From Bacilli bacterium (lineage in GTDB: Bacteria; Bacillota_I; Bacilli_A; RFN20; CAG-288), in contig JALCRV010000005.1 of the NCBI GenBank assembly GCA_022652945.1, positions 83,512-147,511 of the forward strand: a stretch of DNA of 64,000 bases. The letters run 5' to 3'. Shown one piece after another: positions 2,151-45,611 of this stretch. The notes below the pieces were generated by a model. It searched no databases. It worked only from the letters and a program-made list of their open reading frames with translations, and was not told the origin of the DNA. The translations under genes and the position numbers were made by a program. Position 1 is the first letter of the stretch, and every line of letters starts with the position of its first letter.

Positions 2151-4706
2151 TTACTTTACCTTCTTCTTTAATTCGAAAAGGAAATTCAAAGCTTCCATCG
2201 GAGACATCGTCAAAGGATCAAGACTCTTGATGGCCTCCAAGGCTTCCGTTTCTTCTTTGCTGGCTCCGCTCTCTTTAACAGGAGTCTCCAGCATAGTCTT
2301 CAACTCCGAATAATTGATCTTCTTGGCTTCCAAACGTGCGAGTATTTCTTCCGCTCTAACTAAGATCTCACTAGGTAGGCCAGCCAGTTTAGCGACGTTA
2401 ATACCGTAAGACTTATCCATCGGCCCGGGTTCAACTTTATATAAGAAAGTGATCTCCTGCCCTTCTTCTTTAACGGAGACATGGACATTATTCACAGTCG
2501 GCATATCTTGGACTAAACCCGTGATTTCATGATAGTGAGTGGAGAATAGAGTTTTAGCGTGCACGTCTTTTACGATGTATTCGATAATCGACTGAGCTAA
2601 AGCCATGCCATCGTAAGTGGCAGTCCCACGCCCGATTTCATCAAAAATCAGCAGTGAGTTCTGCGTAGCATTTCTTAACGCGCGGTTAGTCTCCGCCATC
2701 TCAACCATGAAAGTCGACTCCCCTTTTATCAAATCATCGGAAGCGCCGATTCTGGTAAAAATCGCATCAAACACATAAAGATCAGCCTTTTCAGCTGGAA
2801 CAAAGCAACCTAGCTGAGCCATAATCACCAGCAAAGCAAATTCTCTCATATAAGTGGATTTACCACCCATGTTCGGTCCGGTGATAATAAGGACTTCCAA
2901 ATCGGAAGGCATCACATAATCATTTGCAACGAAGGCTTTCTCCGGCATCGCTTTTTCGATAACCGGATGTCTCGCTTTCAGAATTTCGATTCTCTTCTCG
3001 CGATTAAAAGTCGGACGGATATAACCATTTTCCGCCGAGACTTCCGCTAAAGAGACAATCACATCGAGTTGGCTGACAGCTTGAGAAAGAAGCTGAATCT
3101 GTTCAGTGTAAGTCTTCACCTTCTCACGGAGTTCTTGGAACATCTTGTATTCCATATCGACTCTGGCTTCTTCCGCGTGCAAGATCTGCGATTCCGCATT
3201 CTTCAGTTCTTCGGTGATGAATCTTTCACCGGTGGTCATCGTCTGCTTACGTATATAACCGAATTCAGGCTTGACCTGACTTAAAGCTCCGTTGGAGACT
3301 TCAATATAATAGCCGAAGATTTTAGAGTATCCGACTTTTAAGGTATGGATACCGGTCTTTTCCTTTTCCTTGGTCTCTAAATCGACCAACCAGGCTTTAC
3401 CATCGGTTGCCATCTTGATGACTTCATCAAGTTTCGAATCATAGCCTAACTTAAAGATGCCGCCTTCCTTAATAGTCGGCGGGCAATCGTTAGCGATGGC
3501 CTTTTCTAAAAGATTGATTAAATCGGTGAAATCAGAAAGACCTGAGGCGATGTCATTGAAATGCGGTGAATTCAGTTTAGCTAAGGATTCTTTTAATAAA
3601 GGAGCGACTTTTAAGGAAGCCTTTAGCTGAAGCATTTCTTTGCCTGAGCAGGAATCGAAGCCGACTCTAGCGATTAAGCGATCGAGATCATAAATCTGTG
3701 CAAGCTGATCTTTCAAGTCTCCTCTGATTAAAAAGTTTTCAATTAAAGTCTGGACTTTATCCAATCTTTCCTCGATTTCCGTTTGATCAGACGAGGGCTC
3801 ATTGATATAAGTCTTTAAGAGTCTTTCCCCCATCGGGGTCTGGCAGTGATTCAATAACCAGTAAAGGCTTCCGTAAGCTCCTTCTCCGGAGATGGATTTA
3901 GTCAGTTCAAGATTAACGCGTGAAGAATGATCTAACGCCAGCACTTTAGTTAGAACTCTCGGCACCGCAGGCTTAAAATAGTCGAGATCTCTCTTCTGAG
4001 TTTCATGAAGATAATTCATTAACTTAGCGACAGCCGTCATTTGTCTTTCATCTTTGACGTATTTATATAAGGGCTCGTAGCTTAAGGAGCCTTCATCATT
4101 ATTAAAATAAGTCAGGCAGATCTTAGTCGCCGTCTTAATTGCATTAATCAAAGCCGCATCCATAGAAGTGGAGACAATTACTTCCTTGGCATCATAATTA
4201 ACCAGTTGAGCAACCACGTCTTGATATGAATGGGAAACATTCATCACATCGATTTCCCCGGTGGAAAGATCAGCGAAAGCCAAGGCATAGGTGAACTTAA
4301 AATCAATCAAGGCCGCAAGATAGTTATTGTCGGAACCTTCAATCTCTAAATTGGCCCCCGGAGTGATAATCTGGATAACATCTCTTTTAACTAGGCCTTT
4401 CGCTAGCTTAGGGTCTTCCATCTGTTCGACGATGCCGACTTTATGCCCGTTATCAAGAAGCTTCTGAACATACGCCAAATAGGCGTGATGAGGAATCCCG
4501 CACATCGGGACTCGATCTTTCTGCCCAGCGGATTTTCCCGTCAGAAAGAGTTGCAATTCCTTTGAAGCGATTTTGGCGTCATCGAAAAACATCTCATAAA
4601 AATCTCCGATGCGATACATAATTATCACATCGGGATGTTTTGATTTAACCTCGAGATACTGCTCAATCATCGGGGTATAAGTGACATTATCTTCTTTCTT
4701 GGCCAT
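2151..4706 (-). CDS. mutS: DNA mismatch repair protein MutS
   Basis: The ORF contains MAKKEDNVTYTPMIEQYLEVKSKHPDVIIMYRIGDFYEMFFDDA and a Walker A motif (GPNMGGKSTYMR). The likely true start is the second Met at complement 4706, since MAKKED is the conserved MutS N-terminus. The track ORF extends 13 codons further, to 4745. Confidence 0.95.
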   Translation of the reverse strand: MAKKEDNVTYTPMIEQYLEVKSKHPDVIIMYRIGDFYEMFFDDAKIASKELQLFLTGKSAGQKDRVPMCGIPHHAYLAYVQKLLDNGHKVGIVEQMEDPKLAKGLVKRDVIQIITPGANLEIEGSDNNYLAALIDFKFTYALAFADLSTGEIDVMNVSHSYQDVVAQLVNYDAKEVIVSTSMDAALINAIKTATKICLTYFNNDEGSLSYEPLYKYVKDERQMTAVAKLMNYLHETQKRDLDYFKPAVPRVLTKVLALDHSSRVNLELTKSISGEGAYGSLYWLLNHCQTPMGERLLKTYINEPSSDQTEIEERLDKVQTLIENFLIRGDLKDQLAQIYDLDRLIARVGFDSCSGKEMLQLKASLKVAPLLKESLAKLNSPHFNDIASGLSDFTDLINLLEKAIANDCPPTIKEGGIFKLGYDSKLDEVIKMATDGKAWLVDLETKEKEKTGIHTLKVGYSKIFGYYIEVSNGALSQVKPEFGYIRKQTMTTGERFITEELKNAESQILHAEEARVDMEYKMFQELREKVKTYTEQIQLLSQAVSQLDVIVSLAEVSAENGYIRPTFNREKRIEILKARHPVIEKAMPEKAFVANDYVMPSDLEVLIITGPNMGGKSTYMREFALLVIMAQLGCFVPAEKADLYVFDAIFTRIGASDDLIKGESTFMVEMAETNRALRNATQNSLLIFDEIGRGTATYDGMALAQSIIEYIVKDVHAKTLFSTHYHEITGLVQDMPTVNNVHVSVKEEGQEITFLYKVEPGPMDKSYGINVAKLAGLPSEILVRAEEILARLEAKKINYSELKTMLETPVKESGASKEETEALEAIKSLDPLTMSPMEALNFLFELKKKVK

Positions 4707-4814
4707 AGTTCTTGTTTTCGTTATTAGATTATACCAAAAACCCATGCCTTTTTCTTTAATAAAGAAAAAGGGGCACCGCCCCTTTAAGACAAAGATTCTT
4801 CAATCTTTAACTAA

Positions 4815-5564
4815 TCAATCATCATCTTCTTTGTCATCGTCATTCTCGTGGTTTTCGAAATAAATCTTTCTAATATGATGGTTCTTATCCCACTTGCCTG
4901 AATGAGTCAGAAAATCCATAAGCGAAGTGATCGAGTAAAAGACCGGAATAGTCAAAAAGAGAAACCAATAAGGATGCCAGAGATTCATCTGGAAGCCGAG
5001 AAATAAATAAACGCCGGAGATTAAAATCGGATAGCCACCCCAGGCCCAAGTCTTCCGGAAAATCGAATCCTCCAAGGTTGATAAACTGCAAGTGATAAAG
5101 AAAATCAGCCACAGAGGATGCCAAAGCCCGGTGATGCCTGATACAACCACATAAATCAAAATTGAACTCAGCCAGATGATTGGATCGAAGAAACGACGGA
5201 AATTAGCTCTGCGATCTAGATGGAGCTTATTGATGGCGATATCCTTTTCTTCAGGAGTTAAAGTTTCTTCATCCTCATCATCTTCTTTATTCATATCAGC
5301 CTTATTAGTTTGGGCTGCATCCTGCTTTTCTTTTTCCTGGGCGGCGATATCCTCAACGCTCTGGTCAGTCTTTAATAACTCATCAAGTGAGACACCGTAA
5401 AGCTGAGCTAAGCAGATCAGATTATCCGTATCGGGGCTCGCTTCCGCTCTTTCCCATTTAGAGACGGCTTGTCTAGATAAGCCCAGTTTGCTCGCCAACT
5501 CTTCCTGGGAAAATCCATTCTTCTTTCTTAACTCAATTAATCTATCAGCGATTTCGATGTTCAT
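4815..5564 (-). CDS. XRE-family HTH transcriptional regulator with a C-terminal multi-pass membrane domain
   Basis: The N-terminus (MNIEIADRLIELRKKNGFSQEELASKLGLSRQAVSKWERAE) is a Cro/C1-type HTH. An acidic linker follows, then 3-4 hydrophobic helices (IIWLSSILIYVVVSGITGLW..., YPILISGVYLFLGF...). Confidence 0.75.
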   Translation of the reverse strand: MNIEIADRLIELRKKNGFSQEELASKLGLSRQAVSKWERAEASPDTDNLICLAQLYGVSLDELLKTDQSVEDIAAQEKEKQDAAQTNKADMNKEDDEDEETLTPEEKDIAINKLHLDRRANFRRFFDPIIWLSSILIYVVVSGITGLWHPLWLIFFITCSLSTLEDSIFRKTWAWGGYPILISGVYLFLGFQMNLWHPYWFLFLTIPVFYSITSLMDFLTHSGKWDKNHHIRKIYFENHENDDDKEDDD

Positions 5565-5688: not shown

Positions 5689-6249
5689 TTAGGACTTATT
5701 TTCCGCTTGCATTTTAAGGTAATCTTCTTTTTTCAGATAGAAACAGAGTTCATCACGGTACTCATCAAGAAAAATTACGTGTTTTTTCTTGATGGTTTTA
5801 TAGTAAGTAAGACCGCATTTAACTATGACTCTCTCGGAGCGATTATTGCCAAGGTAATGGCAGATAAAGATCATCTGGTAATCCTTCTTAGTGAAAAGAT
5901 AATCGATTAAGGCTTTGCAGGCCTCAGTCATATATCCGTGTCCCCAGTAATCTTTTGAGAGGACATAGCCGATCTCGATGGATTTCCGATCTGGGAAGTC
6001 CTTTGCGTCTGAATACTGGTGAAGACCGATGGAGCCGATAAGCTTCCCTGTCTCTTTTAAAACAATCCCGCTTTCATCCGGATCAAAAATAAAACTATTC
6101 AAAATCTCAGCTGATTCTTCCTTGGATTTATGATGAGGCCAGCCGGCGGCTTCCCCGACATCCTTTACGGAAGCATACTCATAAAAATCATTCAGATCAG
6201 TTTTCTTAAAAGGCCGTAAGACTAATCGTGGTGTTTTAATAACATCCAT
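5689..6249 (-). CDS. GNAT family N-acetyltransferase (RimJ/RimL-like)
   Basis: The 186-aa product begins RLVLRPFKKTDLNDFYEYASV and contains an IGYVLSKDYWGHGYMTEA acetyl-CoA-binding-like segment. This is the typical GNAT layout. Confidence 0.75.
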   Translation of the reverse strand: MDVIKTPRLVLRPFKKTDLNDFYEYASVKDVGEAAGWPHHKSKEESAEILNSFIFDPDESGIVLKETGKLIGSIGLHQYSDAKDFPDRKSIEIGYVLSKDYWGHGYMTEACKALIDYLFTKKDYQMIFICHYLGNNRSERVIVKCGLTYYKTIKKKHVIFLDEYRDELCFYLKKEDYLKMQAENKS

Positions 6250-10940: not shown

Positions 10941-11334
10941 GGGGATGTAAAGGTCTCGACAGGTAGGGAGCAGCCTTGAGCGCAGCGGAGTGGCGGCCTA
11001 ACCGCTAAAGCACGATAAATGCCAAACCTATTTATCACAGATATGCGCCGGCTTTTGCCGCCGCTGCTTGCTAGTCTTAACTAGCGCAGCATAAGCGGGA
11101 GGTACACTCCCGAGCATAGTCTAGAGAGTACTCGCTATTCCATTCGGAGTTCCCTAGGCTAACCAAGAACGGATAGTCTCACCTCAAGATAGTCTGAGGC
11201 AGATGAAATTAAGCGCTATCGCCCCTGAGAACAATACGGCCGTTACGAAGCTCAGGGTATTATGACGGCCTAAGCTGTAGCGATCAGGACTTTGCCTTAT
11301 TTGGACAGGGGTTCAACTCCCCTCATCTCCACCA
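10941..11334 (+). ncRNA. ssrA: tmRNA (SsrA)
   Basis: The 5' end GGGGATGTAAAGGTCTCGACAGG resembles B. subtilis ssrA (GGGGACGTTACGGATTCGACAGG). The 3' end has a tRNA-like T-arm and acceptor, GGTTCAACTCCCCTCATCTCCACCA. An internal reading frame follows ATAAAT (GCC AAA ... GCT GCT TGC TAG TCT TAA), which aligns with the B. subtilis tag region and its double stop. A hairpin plus T-run terminator follows at 11345-11364. Confidence 0.9.
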
Positions 11335-39207: not shown

Positions 39208-39537
39208 ATGAAAAAAGTCACATCCGGTCAAGAAGCCTTAGGAGATTTTGCTCCGCAGTTCGCTTCTTTAAATGATGATGTCCTCTTCGGTGAAGTCTGG
39301 TCAAAAGAAGACGAATTAAGTCCGAAAGAAAGAAGCTTAATTACGATCGCCGCCTTACTGGGCAGTGGAATCCTAGATAGTTCTCTTAAATACCATATCC
39401 AGAAAGGCAAGGAGAACGGCATCAATGAAAAAGAGATGGTCGCTTGCTTAACTCAGCTCGGTTTCTACGCCGGCTGGCCTAAAGCCTGGGCGGCTTTCAG
39501 AATGGCGAAAGAGATTTATCGAGGTGAAGGAAAATAA
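39208..39537 (+). CDS. Carboxymuconolactone decarboxylase (AhpD-like) family protein
   Basis: A 109-aa protein. The segments ERSLITIAALLGSG and MVACLTQLGFYAGWPKAW resemble the CMD/AhpD fold. Confidence 0.65.
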   Translation: MKKVTSGQEALGDFAPQFASLNDDVLFGEVWSKEDELSPKERSLITIAALLGSGILDSSLKYHIQKGKENGINEKEMVACLTQLGFYAGWPKAWAAFRMAKEIYRGEGK

Positions 39538-39704
39538 GAAGGCTGATTTATCTATAAAAGCAGCTTCCGTCTTTTCCCTTCTCTTCTTGAAAAAGCTTTT
39601 ATAATTCAAGAAGCTTATTAAAAAAGTTTTGAATCAAAGAGTAGCATCTAAGGAATAAGCCCTTAAGTAATGGATTTTTTAGTTATAAACTTTTTTATAA
39701 CTTT

Positions 39705-39777
39705 TTAGCACTCTTCTATTGACAGTGCTAATTATTGATGTATAATACAGTTAGCACTTGAAGAATGAGAGTGCTAA
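39705..39777 (+). promoter_or_regulatory. SigA-type promoter flanked by two CIRCE-like HrcA operators upstream of hsp20
   Basis: CIRCE-1 is TTAGCACTC-N9-CAGTGCTAA (39705-39731). The -35 TTGACA (39719-39724) and -10 TATAAT (39741-39746) are 16 nt apart. CIRCE-2 is TTAGCACTT-N9-GAGTGCTAA (39751-39777). The CIRCE consensus is TTAGCACTC-N9-GAGTGCTAA. Confidence 0.75.
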
Positions 39778-39797
39778 AAACAAGGAGGATAAAACTT

Positions 39798-40244
39798 ATG
39801 TCTACTAATGAAAATCAGATCGCTAAAAAGAATGAAGGAAGAAACGAAGGAAGAAGCTTAGGGTTTTTCGATCCGCTATTTGATGCTTTCTTCCCTGAAG
39901 AGAGGAACTCTAACCATCTGATGAAAACCGATATCAAGGAAAATGATGGTGGTTATGAATTAGCAGTCGAGGTTCCGGGCTTGAAGAAAGATCAGGTCAG
40001 CTTAAAGTATTCTGATGGTTACCTGACAATCGCCGCTAAGGAGAATATCTCCGATGATCATACTTCCAAGAATGGTAAGTTTATCAGACGTGAGAGATAT
40101 CTCGGCTCTTACGAGAGAAGCTTCTATATCGGCGAGATTGACCAGAAAGATATCAAGGCCAAGATGGAAGACGGGATTTTAAAGGTGTCCTTCCCTAAAG
40201 AAAAGGAACATCTGCCTACGGAAAACAGCATCCAGATTCTTTAA
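39798..40244 (+). CDS. Hsp20/alpha-crystallin family small heat shock protein
   Basis: The alpha-crystallin domain is recognisable: DIKENDGGYELAVEVPGLKKDQVSLKYSDGYLTIAA...ERYLGSYERSFYIG...DGILKVSFPK. The start was placed at MSTNEN after AAGGAGG. Confidence 0.85.
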   Translation: MSTNENQIAKKNEGRNEGRSLGFFDPLFDAFFPEERNSNHLMKTDIKENDGGYELAVEVPGLKKDQVSLKYSDGYLTIAAKENISDDHTSKNGKFIRRERYLGSYERSFYIGEIDQKDIKAKMEDGILKVSFPKEKEHLPTENSIQIL

Positions 40245-40516
40245 AGGATCGCTGTCTATATATAGAAAGAGTCGCGGTGAGAAAACACCGCGCTCTTTTT
40301 TTATAGAGTTCAAATATCAATAACTTTTGCCTTTATATATATCAGAAATTATTGCTTTTGTTCCTTTTTAACATATAGTTTTGTCCCTATTTTTTCAACA
40401 AATATTTAAAATATTTAGCCAGTTTAAGGCATTTTATGTGTCTATCTTTCTTTATTGAAATAGGCATTTTTAATAATTAACAGCCGCCTCATAATTAAAC
40501 CAAGGAGGAAAAAAAC

Positions 40517-40963
40517 ATGTTTTCCAAGAATTATATCTATGCTCATACGATTAAGCCTCTTTACTGCAAGAAGATTCATGAAAAAGAAAATTATACCCTT
40601 CAGGATCTGAGGCAGATGCAGTACAATAAATGGAGCAGAGCCAAAGGCGTCTACTCCGGCAACTTCCTTCCTAAAGAGGAGAAGAAAGCCAGGCTCCTCA
40701 AGCAAGGATGGGTATATGAATTTCCGAAATATGCCCATACGGAGGGAGCGGACAAAAACATCGTTTACAAGTGTCTCCGCAACAACCAGTACGTCAGAGA
40801 ATGCCATGCAGAAAATCGCTTTCATTGGCATTGGTTGAATTGTTTTCTTGCAAAAGGCTTTACAGAGCATATGAGAGAGCTGAAGAAAAAACATTTGCCG
40901 AAATATCTTAATGAATATGGTGAGCCTTCCACCAACTGGAAAGATAACCATTTTTATAAATAA
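40517..40963 (+). CDS. Cassette gene A (copy 1): small basic Cys/His-containing protein of unknown function
   Basis: A 148-aa protein with a strong RBS (AAGGAGG). The first ~67 aa and the ~145 nt upstream are near-identical to copy 2 (A' at 43089). Conserved C-terminal residues are CLRNNQ, RFHWHW and N(E/D)YGE. Confidence 0.6.
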   Translation: MFSKNYIYAHTIKPLYCKKIHEKENYTLQDLRQMQYNKWSRAKGVYSGNFLPKEEKKARLLKQGWVYEFPKYAHTEGADKNIVYKCLRNNQYVRECHAENRFHWHWLNCFLAKGFTEHMRELKKKHLPKYLNEYGEPSTNWKDNHFYK

Positions 40964-40973
40964 AGGGGGGCAT

Positions 40974-41858
40974 ATGAAGCATCCGATAAACGAATATCCC
41001 GATTTCTTAACCGGAACCGAGGAAGATTCTATCGCAGATATAGATTATGATGCCGAAAAGCGCACTATCACAATTGTTATTCAGGTTGATTTAAACGAAT
41101 ATGACGGGCTTCCTCAAGAAAGCAATATTGTTTCATTGCTTGCCCCTAACGAAAAGGCACCATATCCCAATAATCTTTATGCAAAAATTATCTTTTATGA
41201 CGTTGATATTTTAAGCAGCCATTTTTTCGAAATACTGAATCACGAGAATGAAACAGGTTGGTACAATTGGATTTGGAGTGTTTCCTTTATAGACGGAGCT
41301 CCGATTTTCGATTTGGATCCTGAAGATTGGTCTAAAGATGAGCGCATAAAATTCAGAGCAAGTTCTTTTGAGTATTTATCATCAAAACAACCTGCGGAGA
41401 CCAAGCGCAAAGGTTTCAAAGTCAATAAAATACAATCGCAAGATTTAGAATGGCCCACTTTTTCGTTTACTTTATTTAAAGATTTTATGCCTGAGCCTAC
41501 TTGGAGCACTATCACAGCCTTTTCATATAATACGGACAAAGAAACAATTACCATGGTAGTAAGCCAGAACTGGAGATACATAAGCAAAAAAGCCGCTTCC
41601 GTTCTTGATAGGCCAGACAAAGAAGGCAGATGGGTGGAGGCTAAAATCAGATATTGCTTCCATCATGTAGTGATGTTGTCTAAAGAGAGCCAAAAGGTTT
41701 TTGAAGAATGGGAAAAAAGAGGATGGCAGATTGACATCTTCAGTTCAGAGTTTAAAAATGGAGTATATACATTCACCCCGAAGCCTATCATTTATGCTTT
41801 AAACAATCCGTCTATCTCTTTTACAGCCGAAACGTTCGAATATGGACTAGTATTCTAA
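40974..41858 (+). CDS. Cassette gene B (copy 1): protein of unknown function with an internal two-domain repeat
   Basis: About 294 aa from MKHPINEYPDF (RBS AAAGGGGGG). It is homologous to B' (43549-44409). Shared blocks are MKHPI.DYP.F, DYD..KRTIT and EAKIRYCFH.V.M.S..SQ.VF..WEK.GWQI, and both end FEYGLV. The two halves resemble each other (..KRTITIVIQ.. / ..KETITMVVSQ..). Confidence 0.55.
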   Translation: MKHPINEYPDFLTGTEEDSIADIDYDAEKRTITIVIQVDLNEYDGLPQESNIVSLLAPNEKAPYPNNLYAKIIFYDVDILSSHFFEILNHENETGWYNWIWSVSFIDGAPIFDLDPEDWSKDERIKFRASSFEYLSSKQPAETKRKGFKVNKIQSQDLEWPTFSFTLFKDFMPEPTWSTITAFSYNTDKETITMVVSQNWRYISKKAASVLDRPDKEGRWVEAKIRYCFHHVVMLSKESQKVFEEWEKRGWQIDIFSSEFKNGVYTFTPKPIIYALNNPSISFTAETFEYGLVF

Positions 41859-42000
41859 TTCTTATACATATCAATATAAAATCCCGCTCATTGTACTTAG
41901 CCTTTTTTCTAAGGAACTAAACAGTGACCAAGATTATAGGTACACATCCCAAAGGCCAAAAGAGAAGGACTTCCCCGCTCGTTAGACTAGGTGGCAACTT

Positions 42001-42132
42001 TTATTTCTTCTTTAGATTATCTTCCTTGCCAGTCATATTTTTTTTACGATAATAGTCCCAAATAGCAAACTGCTGCCTTCTTTTAGCTTCTTTGGTCATT
42101 CTGGACTTAGGCTGTTTTTTTCTCCCAAACAT
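42001..42132 (-). CDS. Small basic protein (43 aa), translationally coupled (TAATG) to the upstream 262-aa gene
   Basis: MFGRKKQPKSRMTKEAKRRQQFAIWDYYRKKNMTGKEDNLKKK. GGAGG lies 9 nt upstream of the ATG, and the ATG overlaps the TAA of the 42132-42920 ORF. Confidence 0.4.
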   Translation of the reverse strand: MFGRKKQPKSRMTKEAKRRQQFAIWDYYRKKNMTGKEDNLKKK

Positions 42133-42920
42133 TATTTTGACCTCCATTCTTCAGATTTATATTCAGCTTTAAGGTTGTATAGGTTGCACTCAATGAAATC
42201 ATCCGCCTCTTTGATTATTTCCTTGATAGATTCATTCTTTTCATCTTTTAGAACATAAGGCGCCTCAATATCATTGATGCTGAATATCGCTAAAGTGTCC
42301 TTCCCATCGGACAAAATACCAGCGATGATGTTATCTTGGACCGGTCCGTTAAGAGCTTTGCTAACCAGCGGGATCATTTCAACTTTGATTCCGTTTGCTC
42401 TAAAGCAATAAAGCCTTTGATTCTCAACCGCGAAATAAAAGTTCTTAAGTGATTTATAAAAAATAATCTGCTGTCTTTTATATTCTGGAAGGCGCGAATA
42501 CTCATTTAACATCGAGCGAAAACAACTAGAGACACTTGTGTCCATGATTCTGGCTTCATTCATAGCAATCTCGTCAAATACGGCCAGGTTCTCATTCAAG
42601 GGCCTTACGGAAAGTTGACCTGCAGTTTTATAATCTTCTTCATCATCGAAATAAACAGAGTCAAAAATTTCTTCCAAGTCTACCAGCATTTTTCGAAAAA
42701 GTTCACTATTAAGCCCCAACGCACTTTTTCTCTCTATCAGGTTTTCAATCTTCGCTCGTCTTTCTTTTCTAATATCTAACAGGGATGGAATGATACTGTT
42801 CAAAAGACCGTTTATATTTGGCCTGCCTTTTTTTAAATACTTTAAAGGAAAATACTTGCAGGCATCGTTATTAAGAACAGATAAGACTGTCTCACTTATT
42901 GTCACATTAATCTTGTCCAT
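42132..42920 (-). CDS. Hypothetical protein (262 aa) between the two cassette copies
   Basis: A clean ORF with no recognisable motifs. It is oriented opposite to the cassette genes. Confidence 0.45.
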   Translation of the reverse strand: MDKINVTISETVLSVLNNDACKYFPLKYLKKGRPNINGLLNSIIPSLLDIRKERRAKIENLIERKSALGLNSELFRKMLVDLEEIFDSVYFDDEEDYKTAGQLSVRPLNENLAVFDEIAMNEARIMDTSVSSCFRSMLNEYSRLPEYKRQQIIFYKSLKNFYFAVENQRLYCFRANGIKVEMIPLVSKALNGPVQDNIIAGILSDGKDTLAIFSINDIEAPYVLKDEKNESIKEIIKEADDFIECNLYNLKAEYKSEEWRSK

Positions 42921-43088
42921 CCATAAGGCTCCATTAAATTAATGGTATAGTTTTGTCCCTATTTTTTCAACAAATATTTAAAATATTTAGCCAATTTAAG
43001 TCGTTTTATGTGCCTATCATTCTTGATTTAAACAGTCATTTTTAATAATTAACAGCCGCCTCATAATTAAACCAAGGAGGAAAAAAAC

Positions 43089-43535
43089 ATGTTTTCCAAG
43101 AATTATATCTATGCTCATACGATTAAGCCCCTTTACTGCAAGAAGATCCACGAAAAAGAAAATTATACCCTTCAGGATCTGAGGCAGATGCAGTACAATA
43201 AATGGAGCAGGGCCAAAGGGATTTATTCGGGCAACTTCCTTCCTAAAGAGGAGAAGAAAGCCAAGCTCCTCAAGCAAGGATGGGTGTACTTAAACCCGGA
43301 GCATAATGACACGCCAAAGGCAAAATGCCACGCCGATTACAAATGCCTAAGAAACAACCAGCATATCAGATAATGCAATGCGGGAGGCCGCTTCCACTGG
43401 CATTGGTTCAACTTTTTTAAGCCTAGTGGTTTCATCGAATGGAGAAGACAATTCAGCGATAAGAGCAAAATTGAGTGTCTAAATGATTATGGAGAGGTTG
43501 AAACAGACCCTAAAAAGAATCATTTATATAGATAA
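43089..43535 (+). pseudogene. Cassette gene A' (copy 2) with a single in-frame TAA (nonsense) at 43371-43373
   Basis: The frame from 43089 runs 447 nt, the same length as gene A, to a TAA at 43533. One internal TAA sits where copy 1 has GAA (Glu): ...CLRNNQHIR*CNAGGRFHWHWFN... versus ...CLRNNQYVRECHAENRFHWHWLN... Homology to A continues after the stop (RFHWHW, NDYGE, KNHLY). Confidence 0.6.
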
Positions 43536-43548
43536 AGGAGACAAAATA

Positions 43549-44409
43549 ATGAAACATCCAATTTGCGATTATCCTAAGTTCATGCCGGGAAGTGGCGATG
43601 ATGATCTTATGGATTTCGATTATGATGAGAAGAAAAGAACAATTACAATGTTGCTTTCCATAGATACTATTTTCTTGAATCCAGACATTAAAAAAGCCTT
43701 AGGATCTAAGATCTCCATCACGGGAGATACTTATGTGTTAATTACCTTCTACGATATTGATATCGTCAGCAGGGATTTCAAAAAGATCATCGGATACCTT
43801 GATAAAATCAAATACTTTGTCTTTTTCGATTCGGTTGGCTTTTCCGATGGTTGCCCATCATTTGATATTGATTTCCAAGGCCTTGACTGGGACGGGCCGA
43901 TGATCATCAGATTTCATGCTTCATCATTTGAATATAAGAAATCAAAAAGACACAAATTGATTAAGCACTTTGATTTCAGCAAGCTCCCTCATGATAAAGA
44001 GCCGCTTGTCATCAAGACATCTGATATTGCTGACTACAAACCTAGCGGGCCCGCCTGCTATTTGAATGCGTTCAGTTTTAATGAGCGAAAGAAGACAATG
44101 ACCATGGTGATCAATTCCACATGGCACGACTTGTCCGAAAAAGCATTTTCGGCTCTTGGACGTCCTGAAATGAAAGGACGTTATATAGAAGCCAAAATCA
44201 GGTACTGCTTCCACAATGTGGAAATGACCAGCCCTAACAGCCAAGAGGTTTTCGATGCATGGGAAAAGGTTGGCTGGCAGATATGCTATTACAATATTTT
44301 GATTGAGAACGGGCAATTGACTTTGGTCTTCCCTAATCCCATTGATGAACAAAAAGTGGATGAGATTAGTTTCAAGTCAGACGTCTTTGAATACGGGCTT
44401 GTTGAATAA
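43549..44409 (+). CDS. Cassette gene B' (copy 2), a paralog of B
   Basis: About 286 aa from MKHPICDYPKF (RBS AAAGGAGA). It is roughly 40% identical to B by eye, with the same conserved blocks and C-terminal FEYGLVE. Confidence 0.55.
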   Translation: MKHPICDYPKFMPGSGDDDLMDFDYDEKKRTITMLLSIDTIFLNPDIKKALGSKISITGDTYVLITFYDIDIVSRDFKKIIGYLDKIKYFVFFDSVGFSDGCPSFDIDFQGLDWDGPMIIRFHASSFEYKKSKRHKLIKHFDFSKLPHDKEPLVIKTSDIADYKPSGPACYLNAFSFNERKKTMTMVINSTWHDLSEKAFSALGRPEMKGRYIEAKIRYCFHNVEMTSPNSQEVFDAWEKVGWQICYYNILIENGQLTLVFPNPIDEQKVDEISFKSDVFEYGLVE

Positions 44410-44783
44410 CTTTCTTAGCCAACATATGGGTCATCAATAAAGCATAAGATATGATTTTTTGATGGAATAATTCATTAAAAAGCAAAAGTATCTTTAAAAT
44501 GCTCAATAGTGTCCTCTCACTGATAATCACATTTGTCTTCATATATGTTTTGATGTAATTGTGGTTTATCTTTGGCTTTTTCAAAAACCAATTTAATATC
44601 AGTAAAGATTGAATGTAGATATTACACATTTATCTAAAATCTAACTCGCACGGTTTCTCATCTTAGGTATACTTTTATAGCAAAAAAACTTTTCGTCATC
44701 CAAAGTCTGTAACAGAAAAAGTTGTTGTTTTCTTAGGCCTTAATTGATCAATGAAGTTTTCGAATCTATTTTAAAAGAGTCTT

Positions 44784-45611
44784 TTATTCCTCAAGCTTGT
44801 GGAATTCATCCCGGCGGCTGACAAAGTCATCTAAGACATCATCGTAACAGGTTATCTTAAGTTCTGAATGGACTTGTTCAACCATCCAGGGCTTGATGTT
44901 TCTTAAATGAGGGAACGGAAGCCAGATAAAAGTTTTCGGGAAGTGCTTAATAACCGTATCTGGTTGAACCTTACCCTGCTGATTATATTTCATCGGTAAG
45001 GTCACATGGTTTTTAACGTAATAATTCAAGGCATCCTGATCAGGCATGAAAGAAAGATTATGGAGGATAAAATGCCGGCACTTTTCAAATAAACCGGTCT
45101 TCCTTACTTCCGACATATTAAAAAGCATAACTCCGGAATTCATGTACCAGCGGTGAAGCCAGACGGAGCCGACCATATCCAAGGCCGCTGCGAATTCCTT
45201 CCCCTCCAAATCTGTCTGATATAAACTCGAGATATCTTTAGCAATCAAGGTATCCGCATCAAGATAAAGGATCTTATCCGGAATCTCCGGGATCAGATCA
45301 GCGAACAATCTCAGCATGGCATAAGGGGTATAGACCGATTTTAGATTGACACTTTTTTCCATGTAGCCAATAAATACTTGGCTCGCATCGATGACTTTAA
45401 GGCAGGAACCATCGTGACGTTCTTGAAGGATGTTATTTATATATTCCGCCTTCTTGGATGATATTTTCTTAAAGGAAGGGTTTTCTTGAATTAAATCCAT
45501 CGTTAAAAAATAAACCGTCACCGGCTCTTTATTATGTTTCAGATATGAAAGGACAATTATCAGTAGACCGTCTGCGACCTTGTCATTTCCGCTGATCATC
45601 AAGTTGATCAT
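44784..45611 (-). CDS. Glycosyltransferase family 8 protein
   Basis: The DxD motif context is present (ILYLDADTLIAKDISSLY). The N-terminal region (GLLIIVLSYLKHNKEPVTVYFLTMDL) and the C-terminus are GT8-like. The product is 275 aa. Confidence 0.7.
   Translation of the reverse strand: MINLMISGNDKVADGLLIIVLSYLKHNKEPVTVYFLTMDLIQENPSFKKISSKKAEYINNILQERHDGSCLKVIDASQVFIGYMEKSVNLKSVYTPYAMLRLFADLIPEIPDKILYLDADTLIAKDISSLYQTDLEGKEFAAALDMVGSVWLHRWYMNSGVMLFNMSEVRKTGLFEKCRHFILHNLSFMPDQDALNYYVKNHVTLPMKYNQQGKVQPDTVIKHFPKTFIWLPFPHLRNIKPWMVEQVHSELKITCYDDVLDDFVSRRDEFHKLEE

Follow-up and report, generated by a model that had tools for sequence, protein, structure and literature searches.

The tandemly duplicated gene pair A-B and A'-B', found in a metagenome-assembled “Bacilli bacterium” genome (contig JALCRV010000005.1), is probably part of a WYL-regulated nuclease toxin-immunity cassette. 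The window, as the term is used here, is the whole 64-kb stretch of DNA that was analysed. The functional unit is a set of four genes arranged D-C<>A-B, where <> denotes divergent transcription, and it includes C and D, which lie between the two copies in the window. A encodes the presumed toxin, B its putative immunity protein, C a predicted regulator and D a very basic peptide. An earlier note on this DNA had proposed a diversifying toxin/immunity or defence cassette, and the proposal was supported by the co-occurrence of A and B, by the apparently PT7-like fold and the conserved residues of A, and by incongruent sequence relationships among the parts of the cassette, with toxicity as a prediction. 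The features are listed in Table 1.

The product of A consists of a conserved N-terminal region (residues 1 to ~53, ~55 aa) followed by a PT7-like domain (residues ~54–148). A single-sequence word-index search among 5.8 billion proteins returned only two relatives, and a profile search recovered 79 relatives of 150–165 aa, none with a relevant Pfam domain; to reach this number the profile had to include the distant Christensenellaceae copy of A (32% identity). AlphaFold2, supplied with the resulting 80-sequence alignment, gave a confident model of A (pLDDT 83, pTM 0.76) comprising three N-terminal helices and then a beta-sheet domain from about residue 54. Three motifs recur in the family: QT[VI]R and then D, E or H (two residues past R94) in 72 of the 80 sequences, HxHW in 76–77 (H103 in 76, H105 in 77), and C-terminal [NS]P[DE]xHI, with H145 present in 73. 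The window A reads ...QYVRE...RFHWHW...KDNHFYK, and its candidate active-site residues are E95, H103, H105 and H145. These motifs (acidic residue, HxH, C-terminal His) run in the same order as in PT7, a 78-aa Mg-dependent DNase later shown to degrade rRNA as well (bioRxiv 10.1101/2021.10.19.465003; PDB 8OWU). The PT7 catalytic pocket is formed by D37, H47, H49 and H73, and its immunity gene follows directly (bioRxiv 10.1101/2021.10.19.465003). The match of A to these four residues was judged by motif order and conservation, against PT7 fragments rebuilt from published mutagenesis primers (MTKKEIL at the N-terminus, 31-TIRMRIDPPDKVTKYDHVHLYDEN-54 and 68-KSPDAHIPYKM-78). The A family is basic, with a median pI of 10.1. 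The modelled fold and the conserved residues of A point to the PT7 toxin nuclease, and A is most likely a PT7-like His/metal nuclease toxin, its toxicity presumed, with a new and strongly conserved N-terminal extension of ~55 residues.

Conserved Cys and His residues had been noted in A previously. The RFHWHW histidines are indeed kept across the 80 relatives, but the cysteines (C17, C86 and C96) are not, and a zinc-binding Cys/His site was rejected. Weak leads to the papain I29 propeptide (E 0.03), to VbhT (E 0.07), to DUF7650 (E 0.075) and, for C, to glutaredoxin were discarded as noise.

The likely starts of B and B' are those given in Table 1, each with its own ribosome-binding site; that of B lies 10 nt past the A stop, behind GGGGGG. 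The two proteins are 40% identical (E 1e-59), and the two-domain repeat described for B in the earlier note was recovered as an internal match of 25% identity over 130 aa (E 4e-6). A was accompanied by a small acidic B-like gene at all loci examined, which is the co-occurrence that a check proposed in that note asked about, and B begins 0–15 nt behind A or overlaps it in every one. All 13 B-position proteins with a computed pI are acidic (4.2–5.5), and the same basic/acidic charge pairing is found in PT7-PIM7 (bioRxiv 10.1101/2021.10.19.465003). B furthermore co-varies with the C-terminal type of A across genomes and stays intact where the toxin has decayed, for example in A'/B'. By its position, charge, co-variation and retention, B fits a putative cognate immunity protein, and B' is now effectively an orphan immunity gene because the A' toxin was lost to a nonsense codon. 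A single-sequence word-index search with B returned B itself only. The statement that neither A nor B belongs to a nameable family also held: Pfam, NCBIfam, PADLOC and PHROGs scans of A, B, B', C and D gave nothing significant, and no PADLOC-DB model matched any of the five at E ≤ 1.

For C, AlphaFold2 likewise produced a confident model (pLDDT 89, pTM 0.87), in which two beta-alpha-alpha ribbon-helix-helix (RHH) motifs (residues 4–65 and 99–142) are followed by a small WYL-type beta-barrel (residues 171–223). In structural comparisons the model scored 15.9 against WYL1 (6OAW, 229 residues aligned), 12.1 against DriD, 11.6 against TraY (tandem RHH), 11.2 against PafBC, 10.9 against BrxR, 9.7 against CapW and 9.1 against single-chain Arc. 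The model and these comparisons therefore indicate a WYL-type sensor-regulator whose N-terminal part is a predicted single-chain double RHH DNA-binding unit. An exhaustive search yielded a C family of 77 representatives; Pfam WYL was detected in 8 of 65 relatives and WCX in 8 of 65, the latter in some longer relatives.

The 43-aa basic open reading frame that had been described as a coupled component of the locus exists and is coupled, but its partner is C and not A or B: the ATG of D overlaps the C stop codon (TAATG). An alternative start at 42147 gives 48 aa, which is the version called by IMG, and D is absent from the NCBI annotation of this genome. D is kept beside C in L001, L002, L003, L006, L009, L012 and L016–L019 (L numbers denote cassette loci), and its conservation across at least ten loci speaks for a genuine gene.

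Every C<>A intergenic region contains two to three copies of a locus-specific 8–12-nt repeat of the TGTnnTA type, and these repeats are candidate operators. The upstream block carries AGGCATTTT...TGTGTCTAT-N...-ATAGGCATTTTT, conserved in L001 and L002, and the intergenic repeats of the window, L001 and L002 read GGCATTTT..TGTGCCTAT..ATAGGCATTTTT. Since copy 1 of the duplicated block includes the repeats, a single C could regulate both promoters. In more distant cassettes (L008 at ~1515–1545, L012 at ~5968–6000, and L016–L019), a near-consensus TTGACA-17-TATAAT abuts the A start codon and overlaps GGAGG, an arrangement that could mean either that the transcript has no leader or that promoter and ribosome-binding site overlap in an unusual way.

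The duplication itself was delimited by alignment of the two copies. Positions 40374–40673 and 42946–43245 are 94% identical, without gaps, at an offset of 2572 nt, and near-identity extends to ~40715/43287 (~340 nt; 40374–40715 versus 42946–43287) before dropping abruptly; a near-identical 5' block with same-orientation copies some 2.5 kb apart, as first described, was thus confirmed. A degenerate probe for QMQYNKW matched two sites in the 64 kb, namely both copies, with none expected by chance. The block comprises the operator, the ribosome-binding site and A codons 1–66, and ends at the conserved LLKQGW. Within codons 1–66, 10 differ between A and A' and 8 of these differences are synonymous; within codons 67–148, 62 differ, 18 of them synonymously, leaving ~46% amino-acid identity. 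Together with the value for B and B', this agrees with the divergence to roughly 40–50% reported for the remainder of the pair. Copy 1 of the upstream block begins ~70 nt past the hsp20 terminator (40273–40300) and is without a divergent C gene of its own.

Two A genes of 148 aa had been reported, which is correct for A but not for A'. An in-frame TAA at codon 95 of A', 5' of the HxH motif, stands where all relatives have GAA, so that the product would end at residue 94; the NCBI annotation contains only this 94-aa stump (LKJ88_04395). Intact 148-aa relatives are found in P0002, in L002 (3786–4232) and in P0162–P0164. Judged from its reading frame, A' is a dead (inactivated) toxin copy. Opposite A, an antisense open reading frame of 169 aa is present on the minus strand (40442–40951); it is probably spurious as a gene because its counterpart in copy 2 is just 86 aa.

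Table 1 Features of the duplicated cassette in the window.
Feature	Position	Strand	Description
Upstream block copy 1 (promoter/operator region of A)	40374–40516	+	91–94% identical to 42946–43088
A, type 1	40517–40963	+	148 aa, basic, pI 9.6; presumed toxin
B, type 1	40974–41858	+	294 aa, acidic, pI 4.8; two tandem ~140-aa domains; LKJ88_04385
D, very basic peptide	42001–42132	-	43 aa, pI ~10.5–10.7; motif KRRQQFAIWDYYRKKN
C, predicted WYL1-like regulator	42132–42920	-	262 aa; transcribed divergently from A'
C<>A' divergent control region	42921–43088	.	Duplicated block copy 2 begins at 42946; operator-like repeats
A', type 2	43089–43535	+	Toxin gene broken by in-frame TAA at 43371–43373
B', type 2	43549–44409	+	286 aa, intact, acidic, pI 5.5; two-domain

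Comparison of the window with other genomes demonstrated that the two ends of A have different relationships. DNA identity across A codons 1–66 is 94% within the window and 95% within L002, and 88–90% between genomes; for the upstream 150 nt the corresponding values are 91%, 100% and 61–74%. The 3' parts behave otherwise. The type 1 C-terminus of A and the type 1 B are 94% and 91% identical to L001, and the type 2 C-terminus of A' and the type 2 B' are 88% and 89% identical to copy b of L002 (B' at 4244–5107), while C is only 69–70% identical to L001 and L002. The breakpoint falls directly past the conserved LLKQGW. The arrays in L002 and L014 repeat the window pattern; in the third array, L014, the N-termini are 94% and the C-termini 70% identical. 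The grouping of the 5' block by genome points to concerted evolution by local gene conversion, and the grouping of the toxin C-terminus and immunity gene by type across genomes points to their horizontal exchange as cassettes. Such incongruent relationships are direct evidence for recombination. They bear out both the recombination-homogenised 5' region of the earlier note and its suggestion that the A C-termini are polymorphic with a variable partner, the types being shared across genomes (type 1 with L001, type 2 with L002 copy b).

The full D-C<>A-B arrangement was found in ten independent loci besides the window (L001, L002, L003, L006, L009/L010, L012, L016, L017, L018 and L019). On the contigs of the first two A relatives and of the distant Christensenellaceae copy, D and C likewise share a strand and are transcribed away from A and B on the other. 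C<>A-B is present in L008, where no D was called, and L004/L005, L011 and L013 carry decayed C copies. Decayed cassette copies were recorded in L002, L004, L011 and L013. The L002 array contains, at 3349–3678 and 2750–3190, an in-frame deletion remnant joining the first ~75 codons of C to a D tail and a B cut to one domain. L013 (LAHS01000265) has kept D, but C, the N-terminal part of A and an intact B' are missing. The C of L004 is a 67-aa fragment; L004 and L019 share a common neighbourhood (two GH88 genes ... CN_hydrolase, ABC transporter) with different A types, which looks like cassette turnover at a fixed site. Between the two A copies of L014, a pair of genes encoding a basic 139-aa and an acidic 90-aa protein (1144–1768) may be a second, unrelated toxin-immunity pair inside the array.

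The cassette is flanked by different, unrelated housekeeping genes in each genome, and its neighbours in the window are chromosomal housekeeping genes (mutS, mutL, RNase Y, RNase R, gltX and tmRNA). Searches of phage and plasmid collections by tblastn with A relatives gave no match, a scan of viral contigs gave no cassette match, and Rfam and tRNA scans of the cassette region returned nothing relevant. In L009 (7017–12480) and L010 (3564–9027) the cassette adjoins prophage-like genes, including a P22-type portal, and may lie at a prophage border. GC content falls to 35–38% over ~39500–45500 (hsp20, the cassette and a GT8 glycosyltransferase gene) against 41–46% in the flanks, which suggests that this stretch is an acquired islet.

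The hsp20 gene lies at 39765–40244. Two CIRCE-like inverted repeats upstream (39702–39780), TTAGCACTC-N9-CAGTGCTAA and TTAGCACTT-N9-GAGTGCTAA, bracket a perfect TTGACA-16-TATAAT at 39719–39746, a layout consistent with HrcA control of hsp20. A link between the cassette and an HrcA-controlled stress response had been raised on this basis. The repeats are present, but hsp20 occurs at no other cassette locus, so the link is incidental. The tmRNA gene is at 10941–11334, with the tag peptide AKPIYHRYAPAFAAAAC.

Taken as a toxin-immunity cassette, the system is proposed to work as follows. The last ~95 residues of A would form a PT7-type histidine- and metal-dependent nuclease that cuts DNA or RNA, and B would bind it tightly, most likely blocking the basic active-site face, with specificity for the C-terminal type of A. 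C most likely recognises the short repeats of the promoter region that it shares with A; its WYL domain would bind single-stranded nucleic acid arising from DNA damage or from infection by phage, and transcription of A-B and of C itself would change in response. D would be a coupled basic cofactor. The window genome would hold two immunity types. Copy 1 (A-B), which has kept the promoter/operator block only, could be controlled in trans by the single C, and the nonsense loss of A' would leave one live type (A-B) together with the orphan immunity gene B'. The 5' block would be kept alike within a genome by gene conversion, and would provide the homology handle by which toxin C-terminus and immunity cassettes are exchanged between genomes. 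An intracellular role, in addiction or abortive infection, fits the finding of no export signal or machinery, the patchy chromosomal insertion and the association of WYL regulators with defence and DNA damage.

Several results weigh against this reading. Foldseek of the A model against the PDB gave no match at E ≤ 0.001 and did not list 8OWU, and 8OWU was also absent at E ≤ 10 when PDB sequences were searched with A-family HMMs. No immunity family matches B; the 16 B-position proteins gave single weak matches to Imm50 (E 0.06) and YxiG_2 (E 0.058), and B-position proteins had no PDB sequence match. Homology between the two-domain B of the window and the single-domain B of 120–160 aa found elsewhere is not demonstrable (hhalign probability 5.6%). 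The window C itself falls under every Pfam threshold, and co-transcription of toxin and immunity gene alone does not explain how the toxin would be released.

The same nuclease toxin and immunity protein could instead serve as an interbacterial weapon, with the N-terminal ~55 residues of A as a new export or delivery signal; this is considered rather unlikely. The toxin, or the toxin-immunity complex, would leave the cell via a secretion system or by damage-induced lysis, as colicins do, and the arrays and orphans would reflect strain competition. A conserved N-terminus, a variable toxin C-terminus, downstream immunity, orphan and decayed cassettes and horizontal exchange make up the classic polymorphic-toxin signature, and co-induction of toxin and immunity from one promoter suits produce-and-release better than suicide. 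PT7 is itself a polymorphic-toxin C-terminal domain, usually LXG-fused and delivered by type VII secretion (bioRxiv 10.1101/2021.10.19.465003), and over the whole set of 80 relatives conservation is higher in the N-terminal region of A than in the toxin domain. However, no signal peptide, LXG, WXG or other secretion or trafficking domain was detected by Pfam in A or the 80 relatives, the N-terminal profile found nothing in the PDB, and no secretion or lysis gene was present in ~15 cassette neighbourhoods or in the window. D is hydrophilic and resembles neither a holin nor a lipoprotein. A metagenome scan with the N-terminal profile returned only three loci, each with the same toxin domain, so the collections scanned gave no evidence that this N-terminus is shared among other toxin types.

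Two further identities were weighed, and both are judged very improbable. Without a conflict function, A and B would be an ordinary pair of small proteins, nucleic-acid-binding or accessory, duplicated in tandem and controlled by a WYL regulator; the duplication would be old, and purifying selection on an N-terminal domain that is essential would have preserved the 5' block. Conservation of the N-terminal region is high throughout the family, so selection accounts for part of the similarity at the 5' end, and the empty Foldseek search of A is also in keeping with this explanation. Purifying selection, however, cannot explain the non-coding upstream 150 nt, at 91% identity within the genome against 61–74% between genomes, and the 3' parts are 88–94% identical to other genomes while the adjoining C is only 69–70%; moreover, frequent pseudogenisation, patchy chromosomal sites, a low-GC island and basic/acidic pairing are typical of selfish toxin-immunity modules. 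Slightly less credible still is a HicA-like RNase with B as its antitoxin. Weak Pfam HicA_toxin matches were obtained for 10 of the 80 A relatives, the best (E 0.003) aligning residues 67–103 of P0025 with HicA 8–46 over the LxKKGW helix and the strands that follow; the toxin-first order is that of hicAB, and PT7 too starts HicA-like (MTKKEIL). All of these matches nevertheless lie under the Pfam gathering score, and the window A gives none. The catalytic His of HicA has no conserved equivalent (30 of 80 carry H there, and the window A has N81), nothing in HicA corresponds to the invariant HxHW or the C-terminal His, and B shows no HicB-like DNA-binding domain, the regulator being a separate gene.

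Polymorphic toxin systems, in the sense of Zhang and Aravind, combine an N-terminal trafficking domain with a variable C-terminal toxin and adjacent immunity gene, arrays or orphans, and recombination at a conserved junction. The variable toxin C-terminus and immunity gene, the arrays and the junction recombination were all observed here; an N-terminal secretion or trafficking domain was not. The orphan arrays of contact-dependent inhibition (CDI; cdiA-CT/cdiI), Rhs and LXG systems are similar in having conserved 5' sequence that ends in a short peptide (here LLKQGW), a variable toxin C-terminus paired with its cognate immunity gene, copies in tandem, immunity genes that outlast decayed toxins, and type exchange. 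In those systems a copy is a 3' fragment that lacks a promoter and lies behind a giant toxin gene, whereas every copy in the present cassette is a small, complete gene under its own promoter and operator; nor was delivery machinery identified for the cassette. PT7-PIM7 of Bacillus cereus (8OWU) shares with A the order of the acidic residue, HxH and C-terminal PDxHI, has an acidic immunity gene immediately downstream and also exists in standalone short forms. In contrast to PT7, to which it has no HMM-detectable sequence homology and no Foldseek match, A possesses a conserved N-terminal extension of ~55 aa and a helix insertion in place of LXG or trafficking domains, its B partners (120–160 aa, or 290 aa with two domains) have no sequence relation to anything known, and a dedicated divergent regulator pair (C, D) belongs to the cassette.

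C resembles WYL1 (RspWYL1), the type VI-D CRISPR-Cas13d accessory protein, in joining an N-terminal RHH DNA/RNA-binding part to a WYL barrel (6OAW; PMC6547453). It differs by having two RHH motifs in one chain, as in TraY or single-chain Arc, by its length (262 aa versus 385 aa for the WYL1 chain in 6OAW), and by its setting: no CRISPR-Cas genes are nearby, the toxin-immunity operon is transcribed away from it, and the basic 43-aa D is its coupled partner. Like BrxR in BREX, CapW in CBASS, DriD and PafBC, C adjoins and diverges from its presumed target cassette, and the WCX domain of some longer C relatives is a further likeness; unlike them, it has a predicted RHH and not a winged helix-turn-helix DNA-binding domain, and its presumed targets are a two-gene nuclease toxin/immunity pair and not a multi-gene defence system. 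In the three-component omega-epsilon-zeta toxin-antitoxin system an RHH regulator is encoded apart from the neutralising protein, as in this cassette. The regulator of the cassette, however, carries a WYL sensor and is transcribed divergently, and the toxin fold and gene order differ.

In the public record A, B and C are “hypothetical” and D is unannotated, and no Pfam, NCBIfam, PADLOC or PHROGs entry covers any of the four. Each part by itself recalls something known (the fold of PT7, regulators of the WYL type, the switching of cassettes). The libraries and literature searched appear to contain no description of the whole: a PT7-like toxin that stands alone and carries a new N-terminal module, a regulator of the RHH2-WYL kind, and the basic peptide coupled to it. 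A bolder reading, which is possible although on balance unlikely, is that of a hitherto undescribed, self-contained four-gene defence cassette of gut Firmicutes, in which a nuclease of the LXG and type VII secretion kind was captured as an intracellular effector for abortive infection triggered by phage or damage, its expression gated by an RHH-WYL protein that senses single-stranded nucleic acid. The A N-terminus and D would then be new regulatory parts, for example to hold the toxin or release it from B, and immunity types would be swapped at the conserved junction. If the toxin-immunity reading is true, the cassette would define a new family of ~80 PT7-like nuclease toxins that stand alone and share a new N-terminal module, and would add toxin-immunity pairs as a new target class for WYL regulators together with a compact RHH2-WYL regulator related to WYL1. 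It would also offer a small, tractable case of toxin/immunity type exchange and homogenisation in uncultured gut bacteria, and would connect domains known from interbacterial toxins with regulated cassettes in chromosomes, a connection that matters for the sharing of parts between defence and competition systems.

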